Source: a virus (taxonomy: Duplodnaviria; Heunggongvirae; Uroviricota; Caudoviricetes). From it: 46,473 bases of DNA. The stretch lies in the IMG/VR virus record IMGVR_UViG_2563366824_000001; one strand, 5' to 3'. Made by a program: the position numbers and the translations under genes. The notes below the pieces were generated by a model, which did not search any database, was not told where the DNA came from, and saw only the letters and a list, made by a program, of their open reading frames with translations. Shown here piece after piece: positions 1 through 45,860 of this stretch (position 1 is its first letter; each line of letters opens with the position of its first letter).

Positions 1-90
1 TTGCCTCCCCCCCGTTGATGGGTAAAATAGCCGCAATTTTTCGTTTTCAACAAGCGCGGCGCGATGCCGCTTACTCAAGAAGAAAGAATT

Positions 91-165
91 ATGACGTTGT
101 CTCCTTATTTGCAAGAGGTGGCGAAGCGCCGCACTTTTGCCATTATTTCTCACCCCAATAATTAA
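91..165 (+). pseudogene. prfC: Truncated 5' fragment of prfC (peptide chain release factor RF3): 24 codons then stop, directly upstream of the prophage integrase
   Basis: ORF 91..165 translates [24 protein letters not shown], which matches the remembered N-terminus of RF3 up to ISHP, then diverges and stops. Promoter-like AT-rich sequence lies upstream. Confidence 0.55.
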
Positions 166-385
166 TCCCAAATTAAAGCTCTTTTACTCTTTCAAAATCC
201 TTTCAGTTAATTGAGGTCTGGTTATATAACTCATTTAAATACATATGGTTATGTGGCTTCTTTAATTGAAAATTCTTTCATGTAACTTTAAATCGATCAG
301 GTTGCTTTCATCAAAAATCTGTACATATGCTTGTACATAATGTACAAAGCAGCAGAGGTGTTTTGCGATTTGTACAAGGTGAGTA

Positions 386-1609
386 ATGGCGCTGTCTGAT
401 GCGTGGTTGCGTTCAGTCGTTGGAAAGGAACGTGATAAGGTTTTGGTTAAATCCGATCGTGATGGTCTGTCTGTCAGAGTATCACCGAAAGGTCGCGTAG
501 TGTTCCAATATCGTTATCAATGGGCAGGGAAAGGTGAGCGTCTTGATATCGGAACTTACCCGGCAACTGGATTAAAAGAGGCCAGAGAAGAAGTTATCCG
601 TCTCCGTGGTGAACTCGAGTCAAACCGTAATCCACGATTGGTCAAGCAGGCTGAAAAACGAAAAGCTACTGAAGCCATGACGGTAGAGTCTGTGATCCGT
701 GCCTGGTATGAAGCATATTGTGTAAAAAATAAAAAGGGTTCTGAACAGATACTCCGCTCGTTTGAGCTGCACCTGTTCTCTAAAATCGGGAATATCCCTC
801 ACGATGCAGCTACATTGCATGATTGGTTAGAAGTCCTGGAGCCTCTTAGCACTAAGACTCCAGCAATAGCAGACCGATTGCTAATTAACGCAAAGCAGGC
901 CCATGTCTGGGCGTATAAGAGAAAGCTTATTGAAACTCGCCCGCTGTCGGATATCACGGGTAAAGATATGGATATCCGTAAAGGTCAGAAGAAACGGTTT
1001 CTGACACACGATGAAATTAAAATTCTTTATGCTGCGATCGATGGCTCTAGAATGGTTCCCAAATACAGGGCCTTCATTAAACTATTACTGCATTTTGGTT
1101 GCCGTAGTTCGGAGCTAATTACTGCTAGGGTGGGTGATTTTGATTTCATAAATAAGGTATGGACTGTACCACCTGAACGACATAAGACAGGGGACATAAC
1201 AGGCGAACCGCTAAAGCGGCCCATTATTGAACCGGTTGAAGAGCTTATAAAATACGTTATCTCTATGAACAACGGTTCCGATATGCTTTTTACTAAGGAA
1301 GGAAGCAGGGAGCCAGTCGGTAGGACATCATTACAGTCGCTGCCTTACAATTTAATGCAGTACGCGTGGCGGCGTTTAGGATATCAATTCCCTCATTGGT
1401 CTCTTCATGACTTGAGACGGACAGCACGAACAAATTTTTCTGATCTTACTGCGCCTCATATCGCAGAAATTATGCTTGGTCATAAGCTGCCAGGGGTATG
1501 GCAAGTTTATGATAAGAGCGATTATCTAGAAGAACAGCGTAAAGCTTACCTGGCATGGTGGAAGAGGGTTGAATCGATTGTTAATTGTACTATCTCTGAT
1601 TCAAACTGA
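386..1609 (+). CDS. int: Tyrosine site-specific integrase (P4-like family with N-terminal arm-binding domain)
   Basis: 407 aa; C-terminal catalytic region with HDLRRTARTNFSDL and LGHK motifs typical of tyrosine recombinases; SD-like aggtgag before the ATG; first gene inside the element. Confidence 0.9.
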   Translation: MALSDAWLRSVVGKERDKVLVKSDRDGLSVRVSPKGRVVFQYRYQWAGKGERLDIGTYPATGLKEAREEVIRLRGELESNRNPRLVKQAEKRKATEAMTVESVIRAWYEAYCVKNKKGSEQILRSFELHLFSKIGNIPHDAATLHDWLEVLEPLSTKTPAIADRLLINAKQAHVWAYKRKLIETRPLSDITGKDMDIRKGQKKRFLTHDEIKILYAAIDGSRMVPKYRAFIKLLLHFGCRSSELITARVGDFDFINKVWTVPPERHKTGDITGEPLKRPIIEPVEELIKYVISMNNGSDMLFTKEGSREPVGRTSLQSLPYNLMQYAWRRLGYQFPHWSLHDLRRTARTNFSDLTAPHIAEIMLGHKLPGVWQVYDKSDYLEEQRKAYLAWWKRVESIVNCTISDSN

Positions 1610-1894
1610 CGGTTTGTATCACCTGAACATAACCAAATCTCCTAGCACACTTTGAGCGAGATGTGAGCGTTAAGTTTACGCCATTGTGTTGACATAAGAG
1701 GGCACGGGTATAGATATCATCACTATCCCTATGCCCCTAAATCGCTCCTGCTATTTGATAAATGCAGATGTTTACCACCAAATGTTTTTGATACTATAGG
1801 TTGATTCATGATTTACCTAGAAACTTAGTTGTAACGAAAACTTCTTAACGGACACTATCTGGATAAAGTTAGTTTTTTATTTAAGAGGGTTAAC

Positions 1895-2614
1895 ATGTCA
1901 AAGTTAAAAAATGAACCATTAGTAAGGGTATCAGAAGAAGACGGAATAGAAATAAGGAAGATCCAATATCCAGATAATACGATAGAAAGAGTTTATAAGC
2001 AGAAAGGTGTAATATTACCACGAATACCTTTAAAAGGCCGCTTTGTAGAACAATATGTGGCCTTACAGTTGCTGGATAAAGATCTTCGGAATGTTATTGG
2101 TTGGGAGAATATAATAAAAAACATTTGTAATAACATTAATAGAGAACAACACTTTATTTATCCTGATTTAGAAAAGAATCTAATATTAAAGTCTTTATTT
2201 ATATCAAAAGTTGTTACTTACGGTAAGTGTTTTACAGAGGCGAAAGGGCGTCGATTCACATTGCAGAGAAAGCATGTGCCAGAAAAATACAGAGATTTAC
2301 ATGATTCTATTATGAATGTTAGACATAACTTTGCTGCCCATAAAGGTGAATTTGAATATGATCAATGCGGCTTGGTTTTAATATTGCCGGGGACCAAGAA
2401 AAAAAGGTGCTATCATATTTTTTCAGAACTCAATCAAATAAATTACGGTAATAATGAGGAAGATGATGAACGTTTTTTTATGTTATATGATTCACTGCGT
2501 AAAGTCATTAAAGAAAAACGAGATAAATTAATTGAAAAAATATACGCTGAAAAGATTCATACTCAAACAATGGAGTATTGGTTGAGCCGAACAGGAAAAG
2601 AAACAGAGATTTAA
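1895..2614 (+). CDS. Hypothetical protein, markedly AT-rich orphan cargo gene between int and xis
   Basis: 239-aa ORF with SD taagaggg 6-8 nt before the ATG; codon composition much more AT-rich than the flanking phage genes; no motif I can name. Confidence 0.7.
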   Translation: MSKLKNEPLVRVSEEDGIEIRKIQYPDNTIERVYKQKGVILPRIPLKGRFVEQYVALQLLDKDLRNVIGWENIIKNICNNINREQHFIYPDLEKNLILKSLFISKVVTYGKCFTEAKGRRFTLQRKHVPEKYRDLHDSIMNVRHNFAAHKGEFEYDQCGLVLILPGTKKKRCYHIFSELNQINYGNNEEDDERFFMLYDSLRKVIKEKRDKLIEKIYAEKIHTQTMEYWLSRTGKETEI

Positions 2615-2890
2615 TTTGTTCAGTATATAAAAGCTAATTTTTAAGGAGTAATTTTCAGATGATTAAAGCTGATTACATTGCGATAGGTACTCTACGACTA
2701 ACTTTTCAACAAGAGTAAGGGGGTAATCAATTTTATTTGTATCAATACATTTCTTGGCGATAATGTTTTGATCTTATCGATTCATGTCATATGGTCATTG
2801 GTAACGTCCGCTCTTGGTAAAGAGTGGACGCTCAGATTAGGTTTGGCATCTAATCATAGATGTGTCAGCTCACATCTAAGCTAATACATA

Positions 2891-3085
2891 TTAATCAATC
2901 ACTCCCGCAAATCTGTAAATCTTGTGTGATGCCCATTTATTTGGGCAGGATTTAATATCAGGATCTGGAAAGTCAGGCCTGTATTTCTGGCCAGTTCTCC
3001 TGTTTACGCTGTTCCAGCGAAGAACTGTCGATACTGAAACACCACAGAAATCGGCGACTTGTTTAGTTGTCATTAAGTTGTTCAT
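2891..3085 (-). CDS. Excisionase / AlpA-like helix-turn-helix DNA-binding protein
   Basis: 64 aa; MTTKQVADFCGVSVSTVLRW is the classic Xis/AlpA/MerR-like HTH; sits next to int, at the end of the minus-strand early operon; start overlaps the upstream stop. Confidence 0.65.
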   Translation of the reverse strand: MNNLMTTKQVADFCGVSVSTVLRWNSVNRRTGQKYRPDFPDPDIKSCPNKWASHKIYRFAGVID

Positions 3086-3705
3086 TACTTCACCTCCTGC
3101 GGCGGCTCCGGTAGCGGCATCCAGTGGGTTACTTTCGATGCCGGTTCTTCCCCATTGTCAGTAACTGCCCACCATTTGTTTCTCGAACAATCGTAATACC
3201 CTTCGAAGGTATCGCACTCAGTCCAGCCGTAAGACTTACCCCAACACCAAACATACTGTTTATCGTTCGGCATTCGCTCACTACAGCTTATCCAACCATC
3301 CGGAGTTACCGGAGAGTTGCCCGACAGCTCGTTCAACTTATAAGTCTGGCTTACAGGTTCGGCACCATTAAGCATGGAGGCGCGGCAGGCGTTCCAGCCT
3401 TCATCAAAGCCGACTATGCCATTATTTAAAGACGGACGAGCATCTGGCACCATCGGCACTGGCTTGGCTATATATAGCGGCTGAACATACCAGCCCTTTG
3501 ATAACCAACTGTCAGCAATGTTTTTACTCCTCGTTATTGCCGGAATACCTAAGCCATTTTCTGAATGCAGCCATGCCACCGGCTCCTCTTCTAGCGATGC
3601 CAGAGCAATTTCATAAGCACGGCGCTCAATATCGTCTCGAACCTCTAGGCTGCTGATTCGTTCTTTGATTTCTTTAATCAGTTCTTTATTGGTAAATGTG
3701 GTCAT
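3085..3705 (-). CDS. DUF551-domain phage protein
   Basis: 206 aa; Trp-rich C-terminus (WISCSERMPNDKQYVWCW ... VTHWMPLPEPP) typical of DUF551; translationally coupled to its neighbours. Confidence 0.65.
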   Translation of the reverse strand: MTTFTNKELIKEIKERISSLEVRDDIERRAYEIALASLEEEPVAWLHSENGLGIPAITRSKNIADSWLSKGWYVQPLYIAKPVPMVPDARPSLNNGIVGFDEGWNACRASMLNGAEPVSQTYKLNELSGNSPVTPDGWISCSERMPNDKQYVWCWGKSYGWTECDTFEGYYDCSRNKWWAVTDNGEEPASKVTHWMPLPEPPQEVK

Positions 3706-4067
3706 TATGCTCCAGCCTCCGGCGCTTTTGGCATTACTGCCCAGTGAGTGATATTGAAGTTTTCAAGGTCCCCGACCTGAAATGTCCACTGCCATTCTCC
3801 GGTTTCTTTTTGTCCCCAGGTGTACCAGAGAGAACGCCAGCCAATCAGCCAGCCTTCTCCGTTAGCATCAAATAACAGAACACTTTCATTTGCTGGTGGC
3901 AGTTCAGCTGACACTGGTATTATTTTGTTTTCCAGTGCCGCACATTTAGCTTCAAGCGCGTCGAATTTACGTACCAGGTACTCAGCATTTGTTTCGTTCA
4001 CTTTCAGATCTCGCGGTACACATTTCCCGCGAAGAAACCCTTCCATTTCGAAAACATTCATGCGCAT
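3705..4067 (-). CDS. Hypothetical early protein (YfdS-like size; DUF551-like C-terminal ITHWAVMPKAP motif)
   Basis: 120-aa ORF in the same operon with overlapping start/stop junctions. Confidence 0.55.
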   Translation of the reverse strand: MRMNVFEMEGFLRGKCVPRDLKVNETNAEYLVRKFDALEAKCAALENKIIPVSAELPPANESVLLFDANGEGWLIGWRSLWYTWGQKETGEWQWTFQVGDLENFNITHWAVMPKAPEAGA

Positions 4068-14888: not shown

Positions 14889-15101
14889 TCATGAAAGGTA
14901 AACATTGGCAGCTGAAGGGCCACGCAGACCATTTATCCGGCAAAATTCCACGCGTAATCCGGTGGTAATTTCTTCTGCATCGCGGAGATTGAGCGCTGAA
15001 ACATGAAGCTGGACATCGATACGACCATCGGATGGGGTGATAAGACCCTTGCCGCTTTTGCCGTCAAAGGTTTTGACAATTCCTGTCATTTTACGGGACA
15101 A
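14889..15101 (-). CDS. Cold-shock protein family member (CspF/CspH-like)
   Basis: 70 aa [27 protein letters not shown] ... [23 protein letters not shown] fold of the CspF/H subgroup. Confidence 0.85.
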
Positions 15102-15401
15102 AAAAATTCCTTAATACTGATAACTGGGCGCACTATACACACGTTCCTGAAGAAAGCTATAGTTTTTTGATGGGGTTGAAGATGGCTGGATGTCTAAAAT
15201 AAACATTGCTTCATATGTTCAACTATGCGTTAATGATTGCGTCGGTTTGAAGAACAGACGATATACGAAGTAGTTTACTAAAGCAGTTCTCATTTCAGGT
15301 GTTATTCACTTATTCCTTCTTTGAGTCTCTCCAATTAAGTACGAAGTCGTTTCTGTTATACAAGCCATTTATGCCGAAAGGCTCAAGTTAAGGAATGTAG
15401 A

Positions 15402-15617
15402 ATGTCAAATAAAATGACTGGTTTAGTAAAATGGTTTAACGCTGATAAAGGTTTTGGCTTTATTTCTCCTGTTGATGGTAGTAAAGATGTGTTTGTGCAT
15501 TTTTCTGCGATTCAGAATGATAATTTTCGAACCTTATTTGAAGGTCAAAAGGTTACCTTCTCTGTAGAGAGTGGTGCTAAAGGTCCTGCAGCAGCAAATG
15601 TCATAATTACTGATTAA
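15402..15617 (+). CDS. cspB: Cold-shock protein CspB-like
   Basis: 71 aa [67 protein letters not shown]; RNP1/RNP2 motifs present. Confidence 0.85.
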
Positions 15618-15898
15618 AATTCATAGTTTGTCTGTATACGATAACGAAGAAGGCTGATGCCTGAGTGGAGATACAGACAGAGTGGTGAATATTGGATCTC
15701 TTTAATAAATAGTAAGGAGGTCCAATACATGAAACAATGGCCAGCATATTTGGCAATAACTTAATCAGGAAAAGTATGCTAACCATTGTGGTGAAGTGCA
15801 GGTTTGCTGCATGAATAGTTTTACAGCAGAAGCTAACTGCTGGCATAGCAAAACAAAGTGCGTAAGTGGATGACTCCCACAAAAAGTACCACAATATT

Positions 15899-15922
15899 AA
15901 ACCCGCTCAGGCGGGTTTTTTA
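15899..15922 (+). terminator. Rho-independent terminator
   Basis: acccgc-tcag-gcgggt followed by TTTTTT. Confidence 0.55.
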
Positions 15923-15980
15923 TTATCTGCTTTAAATATGTTATTAAAATATAAAAAATACTTGTTACGAATAAAATCAA

Positions 15981-16151
15981 TCAAGCTACAGCTTTAAGAT
16001 TTGTCTGGAATACTTTGTTGCAATGAGGGCAGATCAAAAGGGCACCTTTTTGTACTCTTGAAAAACTGTGTTCTGACTCTTGGGTGCAGTTTGGGCAGGA
16101 ACATTTAACGAGATAATTACGGCGTGATTTTGAGTCTTTACGTTCTGACAT
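15981..16151 (-). CDS. Small zinc-ribbon protein (YnfN-like)
   Basis: 56 aa from MSERKDSKSRRNYLVKCSCPNCTQESEH ... CPHCNK (CxxC ... CxxC); the longer six-frame ORF has an unlikely N-terminal extension. Confidence 0.5.
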   Translation of the reverse strand: MSERKDSKSRRNYLVKCSCPNCTQESEHSFSRVQKGALLICPHCNKVFQTNLKAVA

Positions 16152-16369
16152 AGGCTTTTCCTGTATAAATGGCCGTATACAGTACACTAAATATGAAAAC
16201 ATATCTCGTATTATTATTTAATATATGATTTTCTTTTAAAATAATTACCCACATTTTTAATGTGTCTGTTTTTTAGCGCCGTTGAGAACAACGTTTGCTA
16301 TAAAAACTAACCCATAGACTCCGATCTTTTCAAACATATTGCACCATCTGTGTACATCGGGGTGAGGAT

Positions 16370-16585
16370 ATGAAATCAATGGATAAGTTAACAACAGGTA
16401 TCGCCTATGGCACATCGGCTGGTAATGCTGGTTTCTGGGCATTGCAGTTACTCGATAAAGTAACTCCGTCACAGTGGGCTGCAATCGGTGTGCTGGGTAG
16501 TCTGGTTTTTGGCCTGCTGACGTATCTGACAAACCTTTATTTCAAGATTAAAGAAGACAGGCGTAAGGTTGCGAGAAGAGAGTAA
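16370..16585 (+). CDS. Class II holin (phage 21 S-type, EssD/EssQ-like)
   Basis: 71 aa [28 protein letters not shown] ... with two TM helices and a charged C-terminus; SD gaggat. Confidence 0.85.
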
Positions 16586-17462: not shown

Positions 17463-18490
<1,028 letters not shown>

Positions 18491-18850
18491 ATTAATATTA
18501 AATCGGATTATTTTTAGCGCTGAATGTGAAATTTAAATAAAAAGGACTCTTCCATGAGTCAAAATCCTTGAAATCTTAAGGGTAAGATAAAAGGTCATTA
18601 GACAGAATGACACGTTTTATTAATAAATAAAGCTATTGTTTCATTCGTGTGTTTTTCTTTACAAAAGTAATCCTTGCTATGGTTGGTTAATCATGCGTTA
18701 ATGGTGTTCTGGTTTGTTACAAAATTATCTGAAGCAGTCATTGTTATAATTTTATTATTTGTACCTCTTGAGATCTCCTTGTTGGTTTTTCTCTCTGATA
18801 TTTTTTTTCGGACCATTCTGCCCAAGGGCTAACTTCTTCAAAAGGTAATA

Positions 18851-19066
18851 ATGATGTCTAACAAAATGACTGGTTTAGTGAAATGGTTTAACCCTGAAAA
18901 AGGTTTTGGTTTCATCACGCCGAAAGATGGTAGCAAAGATGTGTTTGTCCATTTCTCAGTTATTCAGAGCAACGATTTCAAAACGTTAACTGAGAATCAG
19001 GAAGTCGAATTCGGTATTGAGAACGGACCTAAAGGCCCCGCGGCTGTTCATGTAGTGGCACTTTGA
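18851..19066 (+). CDS. cspI: Cold-shock protein CspI-like
   Basis: [71 protein letters not shown]; long AT-rich 5' leader upstream as in csp genes. Confidence 0.85.
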
Positions 19067-19269
19067 GGTAGAAAATATTACAAACCATATTCACTTTAGA
19101 TGCCCGTGTTGCCATGGTTCTCAGTATAGAACATCATCTTTTGATGTTTCTGACAGGAATCCTTTCGGGGCAAAATGTATCTTTTGTAAATCAATGATGA
19201 TTACATTTGATAATATTTCACAATACTTAAATGTTAGCCGTCTGTCGTTAGATTTAAGAAAGTGAAAAT

Positions 19270-19294
19270 GAAGGCTCCTTCGGGAGCTTTTTTG
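19270..19294 (+). terminator. Rho-independent terminator after cspI
   Basis: ggctcc-ttcg-ggagc followed by TTTTTT. Confidence 0.6.
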
Positions 19295-19337
19295 CTTAGT
19301 GTCTAGTCGATGGATACTCACATATTACGGTAACATT

Positions 19338-19568
19338 ATGAAAAAAATAATAGTTTTTTTTAACTCTGAACCAGCAATGGTAGTGCCAGTGATGACCGGA
19401 GTTAACACCATCATGCGTGAATATCCAAATGGCGAAACAACACACCTCACTGTAATGGCTGCAGGGTTTCCATCTCTGACCGGAGATCATAAAGTCATTT
19501 ATGTAGCAGCGGATCGACATGTAACTTCAGAAGAAATTCTGGAAGCAGCAATGAGACTCTTGAATTGA
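19338..19568 (+). CDS. Hypothetical small protein
   Basis: 76 aa from MKKIIVFFNSEP...; no SD-like purine tract recognised upstream; the six-frame ORF starts 13 codons earlier. Confidence 0.45.
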   Translation: MKKIIVFFNSEPAMVVPVMTGVNTIMREYPNGETTHLTVMAAGFPSLTGDHKVIYVAADRHVTSEEILEAAMRLLN

Positions 19569-19737
19569 TTTGATTCTAATGCATTGATAATAAATGATAA
19601 TCATCTTTATCTGTTTGTGTGAAATTTAGACCGTCGTATGTTGATTATTGCGATGTTTCATCTTATCTTTTATACGTTTGCTCCATATAATTGACACTAC
19701 TGTGTACCAGGAAAGTCATAACAGACTAAAAGAGGAA

Positions 19738-19914
19738 ATGATGAACATTGAAGAGTTAAAAACAAAAACAGAAGCAGATATTTCTGAATATATAACAAAA
19801 AAAATCATTGAGCTTAAGAAAAAGACCGGGAAAGAAGTTACCAGTATCCAGTTTACTGCACGGGAAAAAATGACTGGTCTTGAAAGCTATGATATCAAGA
19901 TTGATTTAATCTAG
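19738..19914 (+). CDS. gnsB: GnsA/GnsB-family protein
   Basis: MMNIEELKTKTEADISEYITKKIIELKKKTGKEVTSIQFTAREKMTGLESYDIKIDLI matches GnsA/B as I remember it; SD aagagga before the ATG. Confidence 0.75.
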   Translation: MMNIEELKTKTEADISEYITKKIIELKKKTGKEVTSIQFTAREKMTGLESYDIKIDLI

Positions 19915-20033
19915 TATGTTTATAGTATTAGCATCAATTTCTCATCAGATGCTATTCAACAATACAAATTACCCATAAACCTCGTTTTTACGGGGTTTTG
20001 TTATATTTAAACATTACCGAATAGATATAAATC

Positions 20034-20068
20034 TCGATTGTCGATTGTCGATTGTCGATTGTCGATGG
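20034..20068. repeat. Heptanucleotide tandem repeat (TCGATTG) x 4 plus one degenerate copy
   Basis: Seen directly: tcgattg tcgattg tcgattg tcgattg tcgatgg. Confidence 0.9.
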
Positions 20069-20230
20069 TATTGGTTGTGTGATAATACCTAGTCTTTCCG
20101 GTATGCCTGAAGAGAATACAAACGACAGATTATGTAAGGGAAACGCGCTGAAACTTTCACTCTTTCATGCTGAGTGATTTGACGTTATATTTTTAGCCGC
20201 AAGTGAAGAGCAAACGCATGGAGCGACAAA

Positions 20231-20437
20231 ATGAATAAAGATCAATACACTGATGCCCCCTCCCAGGAGCAGGTTCGTGTAAAAACTATGCTTAATAGCA
20301 CCATTTCGATGGGTTACCCGGATGTTGTAATTGCATGTATAGAACATCAAGTATCTCTGGAAGCATTCAGGGCAATTGAGGCCGCGTTAGTAAAGCACGA
20401 TAAGAATACGAAGGATTATTCCCTGGTGGTTGACTGA
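20231..20437 (+). CDS. Hypothetical small protein
   Basis: 68-aa ORF with a weak SD; function unknown. Confidence 0.4.
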
Positions 20438-41337: not shown

Positions 41338-41346
41338 GGAGTGGAT

Positions 41347-43746
41347 ATGGCAGCAGTAAAAATCTCAGGTGTGCTGAAAGATGGTGCGGGAAAACCAATA
41401 CAGAACTGCACTATTCAACTGAAGGCAAAGCGTAACAGCACCACGGTACTGGTGAACACGGTGGCTTCTGAAAATCCGGATGAAGCCGGACGTTACAGCA
41501 TGGATGTTGAGTATGGCCAGTACAGCGTCACCCTGCTGGTTGAAGGTTTTCCGCCTTCACATGCCGGGACCATCACCGTGTATGAAGATTCTAAGCCGGG
41601 GACGCTGAATGATTTTCTCGGTGCCATGACGGAAGATGATGTCATGCCGGAGGCATTGCGTCGTTTTGAGGAAATGGTGGAAGAAGCGGCACGCAACGCT
41701 GAAGCCGCCTCTCAGAGCGCAGCGGCGGCAAAGAAATCCGAAACTGCAGCGGCATCATCGAAGAACGCGGCGAAAACCTCAGAAACGAATGCAGCTAATA
41801 GTGCACAGGCGGCAGCGACCTCAAAGACTGCATCGGCAAACTCCGCGACAGCAGCCAAAAAATCAGAAACCAACGCGAAAAATAGCGAGACAGCCGCAAA
41901 GACGAGCGAAACCAACGCAAAGTCCAGCCAGACGGCAGCGAAAACCAGCGAAACGAATGCCAAAGCCAGTGAAACTGCGGCAAAAAACAGCCAGGTTGCA
42001 GCAGCCCAAAGCGAGAGCGCGGCAGCCGGTTCTGCGACTTCAGCAGCTGGATCAGCAACTGCTGCGGCTAACAGCCAGAAAGCTGCGAAGACGAGTGAAA
42101 CTAACGCAAAGTCCAGCCAGACGGCAGCGAAGACCAGCGAAACGAATGCCAAAGCCAGCGAAACTGCGGCGAAAAACAGTCAGGATGCAGCAGCCCAAAG
42201 CGAGAGTGCTGCAGCTGGTTCTGCAAGCGCGGCGGCTGCTTCTGCCACTGCATCAGCCAACAGTCAAAAAGCAGCAAAAACCAGTGAAACCAATGCAAAG
42301 ACAAGCGAGACTGCAGCGGCGAACTCGGCGAAAGCATCGGCAGCAAGCCAGACAGCAGCTAAAGCAAGTGAAGACGCAGCCAGAGAGTATGCAAGTCAGG
42401 CAGCAGAGCCGTATAAATATGTCTTACAGCCACTGCCTGATGTGTGGATACCGTTTAATGATTCACTGGATATGATTACGGGCTTTTCGCCGTCATATAA
42501 AAAAATTGTTATTGGTGATGATGAAATAACGATGCCTGGCGACAAGGTTGTTAAGTTTAAACGCGCATCAACTGCCACATATATCAATAAATCAGGCGTA
42601 TTTAGTGTTGCTAAAATTGATGAGCCACGATTTGAAAAAGAAGGTTTATTGATTGAAGGACAGCGCACTAACTATTTTGTTAAATCCAATACTCCCGCTG
42701 AATGGACGAGTACCAGCAATATCGATAAAACTAATAATGGTGTTGATGAATTTGGTTTTTCATATGCCAAAATGCGAACAAAAGATAATATGACAGGACA
42801 ATCATCTGCACTTAGTCTGCATACATGCAGTGCATCCCGGGGGATTGATGTTAGTGGCGATAATAAGTATTGCACTGTTTCATGCAGGGTTAAAGCTCCT
42901 GATGGTCTTCGTTGTCGTTTGCGTTTTGAAAAATACGATGGGTCGGTTTATACATTTTTAGGAGATGCTTATTTAACTTTCGGAACTCTGATAATAGAAA
43001 AAACTGGCGGAGCAGCCAATAGAATAGCAGCTACTGCAACTAAAGATCCGGTTACAGGGTGGATTTTCTATGAGGCAACTATAGAAGCTGTTGAAGGTGA
43101 AACCTTAATTGGCGCAATGATTCAGTATGCGCCGAAAAAAGGTGGTATAACTGAAGCGGGAGATTATATTTACCTTGCAACACCACAATTTGAAAACGGC
43201 GGATGTGCTTCATCTTTTGTTATTACGACAACTGCACCCGCAACCCGCTCCAGTGATATGGTGACGATCCCAACTGAAAATAATATCTATAATAGACCGC
43301 TTACGTGTCTTGTCGAGGTTAATAGAAATTGGGGCGATATTCCTCCTAATGTAGCACCGCGTATTTTTGATTTTTCTGGTGTGCCACCTATTGAGTCAAT
43401 TACATACGCTTTTAACACAACTGAGAAATATTACGGTCAGCTTTATATGCAAACTTATAAAGCGTCGACAAGTACTTACGTTTCTAGTGTGTTTGCTGGT
43501 CGAACTGATGTTCGAAAATTCATTGGTGGTTTTAATATTTATTCTGATGGTACTAAACGAGTAGTTTCTAACGGTGAGGCTACTAAAACTATGAAAACGG
43601 AGTGGACGGGCGTAAAAACACGGACCTTTATTCGAATTGGAGGTCAAGCCACATCGGGAACTCGTCATCTATTCGGCCATTTGAGAAATCTTCGTCTCTG
43701 GCATAAAGAATTAACTGATGCGCAAATGGGGGAGAGTATTAAATGA
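41347..43746 (+). CDS. stf: Side tail fibre protein Stf with Ala/Thr/Ser-rich repeat region and a divergent C-terminal domain
   Basis: N-terminus AVKISGVLKDGAGKPIQNCTIQLKAKRNSTTVLVNTVASENPDEAGRYSMDVEYGQYSV matches lambda Stf; C-terminus ends ...LRNLRLWHKELTDAQM (LamG/ConA-like signature); AT-rich 3' half. Confidence 0.85.
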   Translation: MAAVKISGVLKDGAGKPIQNCTIQLKAKRNSTTVLVNTVASENPDEAGRYSMDVEYGQYSVTLLVEGFPPSHAGTITVYEDSKPGTLNDFLGAMTEDDVMPEALRRFEEMVEEAARNAEAASQSAAAAKKSETAAASSKNAAKTSETNAANSAQAAATSKTASANSATAAKKSETNAKNSETAAKTSETNAKSSQTAAKTSETNAKASETAAKNSQVAAAQSESAAAGSATSAAGSATAAANSQKAAKTSETNAKSSQTAAKTSETNAKASETAAKNSQDAAAQSESAAAGSASAAAASATASANSQKAAKTSETNAKTSETAAANSAKASAASQTAAKASEDAAREYASQAAEPYKYVLQPLPDVWIPFNDSLDMITGFSPSYKKIVIGDDEITMPGDKVVKFKRASTATYINKSGVFSVAKIDEPRFEKEGLLIEGQRTNYFVKSNTPAEWTSTSNIDKTNNGVDEFGFSYAKMRTKDNMTGQSSALSLHTCSASRGIDVSGDNKYCTVSCRVKAPDGLRCRLRFEKYDGSVYTFLGDAYLTFGTLIIEKTGGAANRIAATATKDPVTGWIFYEATIEAVEGETLIGAMIQYAPKKGGITEAGDYIYLATPQFENGGCASSFVITTTAPATRSSDMVTIPTENNIYNRPLTCLVEVNRNWGDIPPNVAPRIFDFSGVPPIESITYAFNTTEKYYGQLYMQTYKASTSTYVSSVFAGRTDVRKFIGGFNIYSDGTKRVVSNGEATKTMKTEWTGVKTRTFIRIGGQATSGTRHLFGHLRNLRLWHKELTDAQMGESIK
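41893..42221. repeat. Two roughly 144-bp direct repeat copies (about 185-bp period) inside stf, over a background of shorter 33-bp-period repeats
   Basis: AAKTSETNAKSSQTAAKTSETNAKASETAAKNSQ.AAAQSESAAAGSA is encoded twice (about 41893..42036 and 42078..42221) with near-identical DNA. Confidence 0.7.
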
Positions 43747-45269: not shown

Positions 45270-45860
45270 TTATATGTCAGGTGTCTGAAGTTTTGCTTTG
45301 GCTCTTAAAATGGTTTGCCGCGAGGTTTTGAATTCCCGGGCAATGGCACTTATACTTACACCTGACTTAATTCGTTCGAATACCACCTGTTTCTGTTCTT
45401 CATTTAACACAGGTGGTCGACCAAAACGTTTCCCTGCGCCCCGGGCTCTTACTATCCCGGAATGAGTGCGTTCAAGTAAAAGGTCTCGTTCAAATTCAGC
45501 GACTGCTGAAATTACTTGCATCATCATTTTTCCTGTTGGACTGGTCAGGTCAATGCCCCCCAATGCTAAGCAATGCACTCTGATACCTGTTTCGGTCAGT
45601 TGTTCCACTGTTTTCCTGATATCCATTGCATTACAACCAAGGCGATCCAGTTTTGTCACAATCAATTGATCACCACATTTCAGGCGAGCAAGCAACCGGT
45701 TAAAACCAGGACGCTCACTGGTTGCTGCTGAGCCGCTAATGTGTTCTTCGATTATTTGCTGAGGTTTGATTTTAAAACCTGCACTTTCGATTTCCCGGCG
45801 TTGATTTTCGGTGGTCTGATCCAGAGTTGATATCCGACAGTAAGCAAAAATTCGAGACAT
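45270..45860 (-). CDS. Serine recombinase (resolvase / Pin-like DNA invertase family)
   Basis: 196 aa; N-terminal catalytic motif [13 protein letters not shown] with Ser nucleophile, LDRLG motif, C-terminal HTH ([15 protein letters not shown]). Confidence 0.85.

Follow-up and report, generated by a model that had tools for sequence, protein, structure and literature searches.

A predicted HEPN-type nuclease gene as exchangeable cargo between the integrase and excisionase genes of an E. coli lambdoid prophage

The IMG/VR record IMGVR_UViG_2563366824_000001, a stretch of 46,473 nucleotides (nt) referred to here in its entirety as the window, is a 46 kb lambdoid prophage window of E. coli, in which a 1.2-kb insert separates the integrase gene int from the excisionase gene xis. 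The only real gene of this insert codes for a protein of 239 amino acids (aa), here called the cargo protein, which is judged rather likely to be a stand-alone HEPN-type nuclease that acts in abortive-infection defence and is carried as swappable cargo in a prophage hotspot. An initial annotation, made from the DNA sequence, had taken the gene for a horizontally acquired moron in an integrase-proximal slot, and the atypical base composition of the gene and the exchange of cargo in the slot bear this out. The evidence computed in the analysis comprises composition, insertion, selection, family size, fold, motif, solo context and the hotspot.

The variable int–xis slot and its cargo gene

The insert has a guanine+cytosine (GC) content of 33%, compared with a window mean of 49%, and the cargo gene reaches only 31.5% (26% at third codon positions, GC3), against 44.6% for int, 41.5% for xis, 49% for the DUF551 gene and 49.2% for the whole window, which agrees with the AT-rich character noticed initially. 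The lowest-GC stretch of 720 nt in the 46 kb starts at 2071, inside the insert, and no more than 0.7% of sliding windows reach the AT content of the cargo gene. The proposed insertion between int and xis is likewise upheld by sister prophages with the same int and xis, which are homologous on both sides (see the junctions in Table 1) and unrelated in the DNA between. As judged from these comparisons, positions 1610–2802 appear to be a horizontally acquired cargo cassette in a variable int–xis slot. The int gene was found in 700 of 5426 complete E. coli genomes (full-length in 698), so that the prophage family bearing it is present in 13% of them, whereas the cargo region is carried by only 69. 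A core phage function was considered for the cargo gene and rejected, the gene being present in 69 of the ~700 prophages that share int; with its atypical composition, this disposes of both grounds on which the initial annotation had said that its proposal could fall.

Twelve int–xis slots, sampled at even steps along the ranking and with unnamed cargoes classed by PADLOC, were found to hold, besides the 239-aa gene studied here (L007), an anti-phage dCTP deaminase (L012, L016 and L018), Dsr1 (L017), a 710-aa CHAT protein corresponding to Borvo BovA (L008; expectation value, E, 3.9e-241), a 595-aa AriA/OLD/GajA-like ATPase (L013), an 868-aa HNH protein (L014) and unannotated proteins with no PADLOC match (L009, L010, L011 and L015). 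Known defence systems thus occupy 6 of the 12 sampled slots and recognised virulence factors none. With its conserved flanks, its swapped cargo and the known defence systems among that cargo, the slot appears from these sequences to fit a prophage defence hotspot, which makes the other unannotated cargoes further candidate defence systems; a literature search found no paper describing an int–xis or prfC hotspot. The cargoes without a PADLOC match come from open reading frames (ORFs) annotated only as hypothetical: proteins of 150 and 160 aa at L009:5325-6301, one of 271 aa at L010:5378-6193, two of 81 and 436 aa at L011:5396-6944 (minus strand), and a three-gene set of a 369-aa protein, a STAS-like protein and a 164-aa protein at L015:5022-6931 (minus strand).

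The cargo gene is under strong purifying selection, with a ratio of non-synonymous to synonymous substitution rates (dN/dS) of 0.05–0.12 against four cassettes whose proteins are 75–85% identical. A word-indexed search recovered 25 clusters of close homologues, all enterobacterial, and gave no additional homologues when repeated with a 125-sequence profile; a full HMMER profile search recovered 925 cluster representatives (at 50% identity) with E≤1e-3, 63 of them with E≤1e-30. Nearly all members are 220–260 aa long and are thus stand-alone proteins. All homologues checked are annotated "hypothetical", and each of the 125 aligned members matches only phrog_8440, a family of unknown function. 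The cargo protein itself has no match in Pfam, NCBIfam or PADLOC, with 0 matches in PADLOC-DB v2 at E≤10.

The DNA common to the Cronobacter cassette and to a diverged copy, L030, runs from ~1735 to just beyond the stop codon, so that the mobile unit consists of the gene and ~160 nt upstream of it. A ribosome-binding site (RBS), GAGG, lies at 1885–1888, and a good RBS is kept in four cassettes. Further upstream there is a promoter-like pair, TTGTAA (1829–1834) and CACTAT (1853–1858), separated by an 18-nt spacer; the Leclercia copy has TTGATA-N17-TATTAT at this place, and the Cronobacter and L030 copies likewise show TATTAT at -10. Because a strict scan of 1500–3200 called no plus-strand sigma-70 promoter, the promoter upstream of the cargo gene is to be regarded as putative.

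Elsewhere, homologues of 37–42% identity lie directly downstream of int in P2/186-like prophages (of Enterobacter, Yersinia and Citrobacter and in several IMG/VR contigs), where the order at the prophage end is repressor, int and homologue, all on the same strand. In Enterobacter and Yersinia the homologue overlaps the last ~20 nt of int, and elsewhere the distance is at most a few tens of bases. The lysogenic operon of P2-type phages is made up of repressor and int, and on that ground the homologue in P2-like prophages would be expressed in the lysogen. Two of these P2-like prophages carry additional same-strand genes between repressor and int (L019:3063-6020 and L023:3553-5966), which code for a Flk_N-domain protein, accompanied in one prophage by a 292-aa protein without assigned function and in the second by a DUF8087 protein; such phages may thus have several cargo genes in their lysogenic operon.

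In Cronobacter and in one metagenomic contig the homologue (85% and 54% identity, respectively) comes after tail-fibre genes and umuDC, at the opposite end of the prophage. Cronobacter has a full umuC upstream of the homologue and, downstream of it, a short ORF (L004:6846-7055 and L003:6720-7050) with a weak match to DUF4113, the UmuC C-terminus, an arrangement which suggests that the Cronobacter cassette was inserted into or beside the 3' end of umuC, duplicating that end. A 28% homologue (E 4e-18) is found in the accessory region of a Vibrio filamentous phage, a 100-kb E. coli plasmid record with lambdoid phage genes has a copy flanked by the lysis genes and terminase, and another copy is in a chromosomal islet. 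The phage kinds carrying the family are thus lambdoid, P2/186-like, filamentous and the plasmid record with lambdoid phage genes. No conserved neighbour gene is shared among the contexts examined, and a scan of the genome contigs gave one locus only.

Predicted fold and HEPN-type motif

AlphaFold2 returned the same topology from 23 sequences (pLDDT, a predicted local confidence score, 86.3; predicted template-modelling score, pTM, 0.75) and from 125 sequences (pLDDT 93.9, pTM 0.85). It consists of three N-terminal strands (residues 9–36), helices at 49–79 and 92–111, a long loop at 112–129, a helix at 130–147, a β-hairpin at 156–181 placed between helices 3 and 4, and a last helix at 188–221. 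The predicted fold is that of a small N-terminal β unit followed by a four-helix bundle.

Conservation was assessed in an alignment of 125 diverse homologues, mostly 20–35% identical to the cargo protein (range 20–50%). Y109, R119, H136 and R143 are invariant in it, and D63, W70, K111, F113, G118, A148, H149 and G151 are conserved in at least 90% of the sequences, the core signature of the family being YGKCF...GR...L......H[DE]..[MI]..R[HN]NFAAH[SK]G. The initial annotation had seen no motif that it could name in the protein; R143-x5-H149 is one, corresponding to the Rx4-6H motif of HEPN domains. As described by Anantharaman et al. (2013, PMC3710099), the HEPN domain is a bundle of four helices in which helices 2 and 3 are often separated by an insert, and it is defined by the position of Rx4-6H at the end of helix 3. 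In the AlphaFold2 model the third bundle helix has R143 in its last turn, and H149 follows as the second residue of the next loop. The residue after R143 is H144 in the cargo protein and H or N in 124 of the 125 homologues, with D in the remaining one, and the insert between helices 2 and 3 is the loop 112–129 (CFTEAKGRRFTLQRKHVP), which contains the invariant R119. Four HEPN features are therefore present, namely the bundle, the Rx4-6H position, the polar residue after the arginine and the helix 2–3 insert. An acidic residue of the HEPN Ex3[KR] type was sought near the active site, and [ED]61-K-D63-L-R65 is conserved in the first long helix.

HEPN_AbiU2 (PF18734), the only Pfam family to match more than two members, was matched by 5 of the 125 (best E 0.0022), and in the one member inspected, P0155, the match aligns residues 118–146 with profile positions 113–142 of 193, which is the Rx5H region. 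On its predicted fold and motif the cargo protein is placed in the HEPN superfamily.

Proposed function and rival explanations

The proposed mechanism is modelled on HepS, ApeA, AbiV and further defence nucleases of the HEPN type, from which ribonuclease (RNase) activity, expression in the lysogen, a trigger and an abortive-infection outcome are inferred. The protein would be made in the lysogen, from its own weak promoter or by read-through from int, and would stay inactive, with no antitoxin partner conserved with the gene. A component of a superinfecting phage would then switch it on, the β elements being candidate sensor surfaces, and the protein, as a metal-independent RNase, would cut transfer RNA (tRNA), ribosomal RNA or messenger RNA, abort the infection and so protect the population of lysogens.

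Independent support comes from the tables of DefensePredictor (DeWeirdt et al., Science 2026, PMC13092281), in which WP_000040218.1, with the 239-aa cluster representative WP_000040220.1, is entered as a "Predicted novel defense gene", the score of the cluster having a mean log-odds of 9.62 and a minimum of 6.26 at a strict cut-off of 4. The HHblits column of the same tables gives no homology of the cluster to known defence proteins, and the accession does not occur among the entries covered for the cloned or validated DS systems.

Several points weigh against the favoured reading. The cargo protein has no Pfam HEPN match at E≤1, the consensus sequences of the family do not match HEPN_AbiU2, and no curated HEPN family was matched at threshold, the best member scoring 15 bits against a gathering score of 26.8; the cargo protein is therefore not filed in AbiU2 or in any other curated family. 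PADLOC gave only scattered single-member matches for the 125 homologues, with no model shared by more than one; searches of PDB sequences with phmmer and hmmsearch yielded neither a meaningful match nor a HEPN protein, and Foldseek against PDB and BFVD gave nothing at E<0.001. In the window the cargo gene is preceded by only a weak promoter-like element, weaker than that of the Leclercia copy. The figures given for DefensePredictor indicate that ~45% of the cloned high-scoring candidates protected, at a rate that rose with the score (PMC13092281). Location among the cargoes of a hotspot is, moreover, guilt by association, which points to a function but does not prove it. An anti-phage role, as the initial annotation had raised it, is the best-supported reading in view of the hotspot, the HEPN signature and the machine-learning score, and it stays a predicted one.

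An accessory function outside defence, be it that of a helical-bundle regulator, of a superinfection-exclusion or anti-defence factor or of an RNase that tunes transcripts in lysogenic conversion, is considered unlikely. It would agree with the lack of a significant match to curated HEPN or defence models and with the catalytic inactivity of some HEPN domains, such as that of AbiA (PMC13064643), and prophage end slots also hold virulence or fitness morons, the Cronobacter copy being located beside umuDC. However, the invariance of R143, the near-invariance of H149 and the additional invariant polar residues point to an active site and not to a scaffold, half of the sampled slot cargoes are defence systems with no recognised virulence factor among them, and the DefensePredictor score is high.

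The second rival, which is improbable, makes the HEPN protein the constitutively toxic RNase of a toxin-antitoxin (TA) module whose cis-encoded antitoxin is either a 19-aa peptide or a structured or antisense RNA encoded in 2615–2890, the latter as in the type III systems AbiV, AbiF and ToxIN; AbiV and AbiF, HEPN toxins of type III TA systems with an RNA antitoxin (PMC13064643), offer a precedent. The peptide would come from a 19-codon ORF downstream of the cargo gene, and both this ORF and its strong Shine–Dalgarno (SD) sequence, AAGGAG, are present as initially annotated, except that the spacer is of 10 and not 9 nt. Among simulated intergenic regions matched in size and composition, ~1.4% contain by chance an SD, an ATG and an ORF no shorter than 15 codons. 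Of the 71 E. coli genomes with a match to the 180-nt downstream segment, 69 have it together with the gene, and the ORF region is near-identical in all E. coli copies, which for that reason carry no information on selection for the ORF. In L030, the one diverged copy (79% DNA identity), AGAGAG is left as a weaker SD, the ATG has become ATA and the stop is lost, and the frame is kept through a compensating new in-frame ATG one codon upstream. With 11.5 non-synonymous and 3.5 synonymous changes the ORF has a dN/dS of 1.05 against L030, compared with ~0.1 for the main gene, and in the natural variant L044 the peptide is cut short after 12 codons by a duplication of 11 nt, with the 239-aa gene intact. 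The downstream segment is moreover absent from the Cronobacter (85%) and Leclercia (83%) cassettes, to which homology ends 8 and 24 nt beyond the stop codon, and from all P2-like contexts. Such poor conservation argues against a peptide antitoxin, and the 19-codon ORF is probably, as far as these comparisons go, not a functional gene; its loss in relatives, the dN/dS of ~1 and the L044 frameshift led to its rejection as a partner gene, so that it falls away as a second component of the cargo.

As to an RNA antitoxin, hairpin 1 at the right edge of the cargo is stable, with a folding free energy (dG) of -19.1 kcal/mol and a z-score of -5.2 on the plus strand (-16.4 and -5.5 on the minus strand), and its pairing is kept in L030 with one compensatory change from T-A to C-G. 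It is also found in the HNH-cargo slot, where homology starts at 2802. Of 200 shuffles, none folded as well as either hairpin on the plus strand. The two inverted repeats noticed initially are therefore real, with limits refined to 2805–2830 and 2857–2878, but the second does not belong to the cargo: it is common to slots with unrelated cargo (L008, L010, L011, L013 and L014, with homology from 2802–2834) and is thus part of the conserved xis-side flank, just downstream of xis. Both hairpins stand between convergent units, with int and the cargo gene directed rightward and xis leftward, and their probable role is to form transcript 3' ends or to act as barriers; a consensus scan of 1500–3200 gave no terminator-like site. 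Against an RNA antitoxin stand the lack of tandem repeats in the cassette and of an Rfam family (a scan of 1–4000 gave only a chance snoRNA-like match), and the overlap of the P2-like gene with int, which leaves no space for an RNA antitoxin upstream. A direct repeat of two copies (2619–2639 and 2654–2674, 76% identity) was judged a chance match.

That the ORF is decaying or spurious, in AT-rich junk left by illegitimate recombination at the prophage end, is hardly credible: the AT-rich DNA, the purely "hypothetical" annotation and the lack of a domain match would suit it, but the dN/dS of 0.05–0.12, the full-length occurrence in ~925 clusters, the AlphaFold2 pLDDT of 94 and the RBS kept in four cassettes contradict it.

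Returning to the stand-alone HEPN-type nuclease, a wider form of this reading, to which about an even chance is given, holds that PHROG 8440 (~925 clusters at 50% identity, all unannotated) is a self-contained single-protein anti-phage HEPN nuclease that senses through its own β elements and has been spread by at least four kinds of temperate phage, and that the int–xis slot is an undescribed hotspot whose other cargoes are new systems. If the favoured reading is correct, a compact single-gene HEPN defence protein of 239 aa would be added to the E. coli repertoire; since no partner would be needed, sensing and killing would be united in one small protein, which would make it a tractable model beside HepS and ApeA. 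The slot also provides a short, testable list of further cargo candidates. The practical value is moderate, as prophage hotspots and HEPN abortive-infection proteins are established and the cluster has already been flagged by a machine-learning screen.

Genomic surroundings and comparison with known systems

Table 1. Features of the int–xis region, in window coordinates
Feature	Position	Strand	Remarks
Tyrosine integrase gene int	386..1609	+	Pfam Phage_integrase, Arm-DNA-bind_3, Phage_int_M; conserved left flank of slot
Left junction of variable slot	1591..1640		End of homology to 11 sister prophages with other cargo
Upstream part of mobile cassette	1733..1894	+	DNA homology starts at 1738 (Cronobacter) and 1733 (L030)
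Cargo gene, 239 aa	1895..2614	+	WP_000040220.1; PHROG 8440; RefSeq "hypothetical protein"
Codons of R143-H-N-F-A-A-H149	2321..2341	+	Predicted HEPN Rx4-6H catalytic motif
AAGGAG and 19-codon ORF	2643-2648; 2659..2718	+	MIKADYIAIGTLRLTFQQE; 10-nt spacer
Right junction of variable slot	2802..2895		Homology to sister prophages resumes
Hairpin 1	2805-2815/2820-2830		11-bp stem, one G.U, 4-nt loop; right edge of cargo
Hairpin 2	2857-2864/2871-2878		8-bp stem, dG -9.8, z -3.4
Excisionase gene xis, 64 aa	2891..3085	-	phrog_1553, E 6.4e-36; conserved right flank, convergent with int and cargo gene

Over the studied region the window shares 99.3% identity with Escherichia phage 2H10 (Glaedevirus), and chromosomal prophages in several strains of E. 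coli match it at 100%. The local order is int (+), the 239-aa ORF (+), xis (-), the DUF551 gene and early-left genes on the minus strand. In 13 of 13 loci inspected int lies downstream of yjjG and adjoins a truncated 5' fragment, which RefSeq labels only as "hypothetical protein", incomplete. Window positions 91–159 we take to be the N-terminus of prfC (its first 22 codons), and with this identity assumed the prophage would be integrated in the 5' end of prfC. Immediately upstream of the int start codon, at 319–377, there is a cluster of TGTACA palindromes (TTGTACA has 7 matches in the window, 4 of them within 331–377), which probably represents binding sites for Int, Xis or a regulator, or a promoter-operator of int. 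The excisionase shows weak HTH_17/MerR-type matches below the Pfam cut-offs; its 64-aa gene is annotated in phage 2H10 and omitted by RefSeq/PGAP in the E. coli genomes (L001, L007–L018). The DUF551 gene is called a pseudogene by RefSeq/PGAP in several strains, and the window ORF (3085–3705) is intact.

Further into the window, three ORFs of 70–71 aa resemble CspA-type cold-shock proteins (14889–15101, minus strand; 15402–15617 and 18851–19066, plus strand) and lie in or beside the low-GC islands 15251–16421 and 18301–20381, around the late-regulation and lysis region; by their composition these islands appear to be other AT-rich morons of the prophage. A 196-aa ORF on the minus strand (45270–45860), which judging by its sequence resembles a Pin/Hin-type serine DNA invertase, adjoins the tail-fibre genes and the AT-rich end segment 45651–46471 and may form a tail-fibre inversion switch. 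The 801-aa tail-fibre protein encoded at 41341–43746 (+) contains a long run of imperfect alanine/serine-rich repeats (KTSETNAKxSxTAA-like).

Among the known systems, the closest functional template, but no detectable relative, is HepS (STM14_3211), the "HEPN Solo" abortive-infection protein of the Salmonella prophage Gifsy-1 described by Sargen et al. (Nature 2026, PMC13043305), which senses the phage tail-tip protein J and kills by cleavage of tRNA anticodons. Like HepS, the cargo gene is a solo prophage gene without a conserved partner. By the published description, the motif of HepS is R100-x4-H105, compared with R143-x5-H149 here; the cargo protein has in addition the N-terminal β unit and the β-hairpin between helices 3 and 4, and its slot is that between int and xis, whereas HepS occupies a replication–antirepressor slot. 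In the LT2 copy of Gifsy-1, no ORF with R100 and H105 was present among those checked.

HEPN_AbiU2, the family of AbiUii of Lactococcus, resembles the cargo family in that it retains Rx4-6H, and it has a link to abortive infection; the Lactococcus locus consists of two genes, of which AbiUii is the second and does not confer the protection (PMC13064643). From the HEPN toxin of the HEPN–MNT (HepT/MntA) type VII TA systems (PDB 7ae2 and 7ae6) the cargo protein differs by its extra β elements and by ~100 additional residues, with 9% sequence identity, and no MNT nucleotidyltransferase antitoxin lies near the gene in the contexts examined. AbiV and AbiF are, in likeness to what is proposed here, HEPN RNases that abort phage infection and reside on mobile elements, but they need an adjacent RNA antitoxin, whereas the cargo gene is accompanied by no repeats, Rfam family or conserved flanking non-coding segment.

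At the level of the locus, the P2 and P4 hotspots (Rousset et al. 2022, PMC9122126) likewise combine conserved phage-gene flanks with swapped cargo and many known defence systems, and the present slot differs from them in its position between int and xis of what appear to be prfC-integrating lambdoid prophages. The DefensePredictor entry concerns the same cluster, as a line in a table, and the analysis of fold, motif, hotspot and context comes from the present study. What is new here is a sequence family and an architecture within a well-known kind of system.

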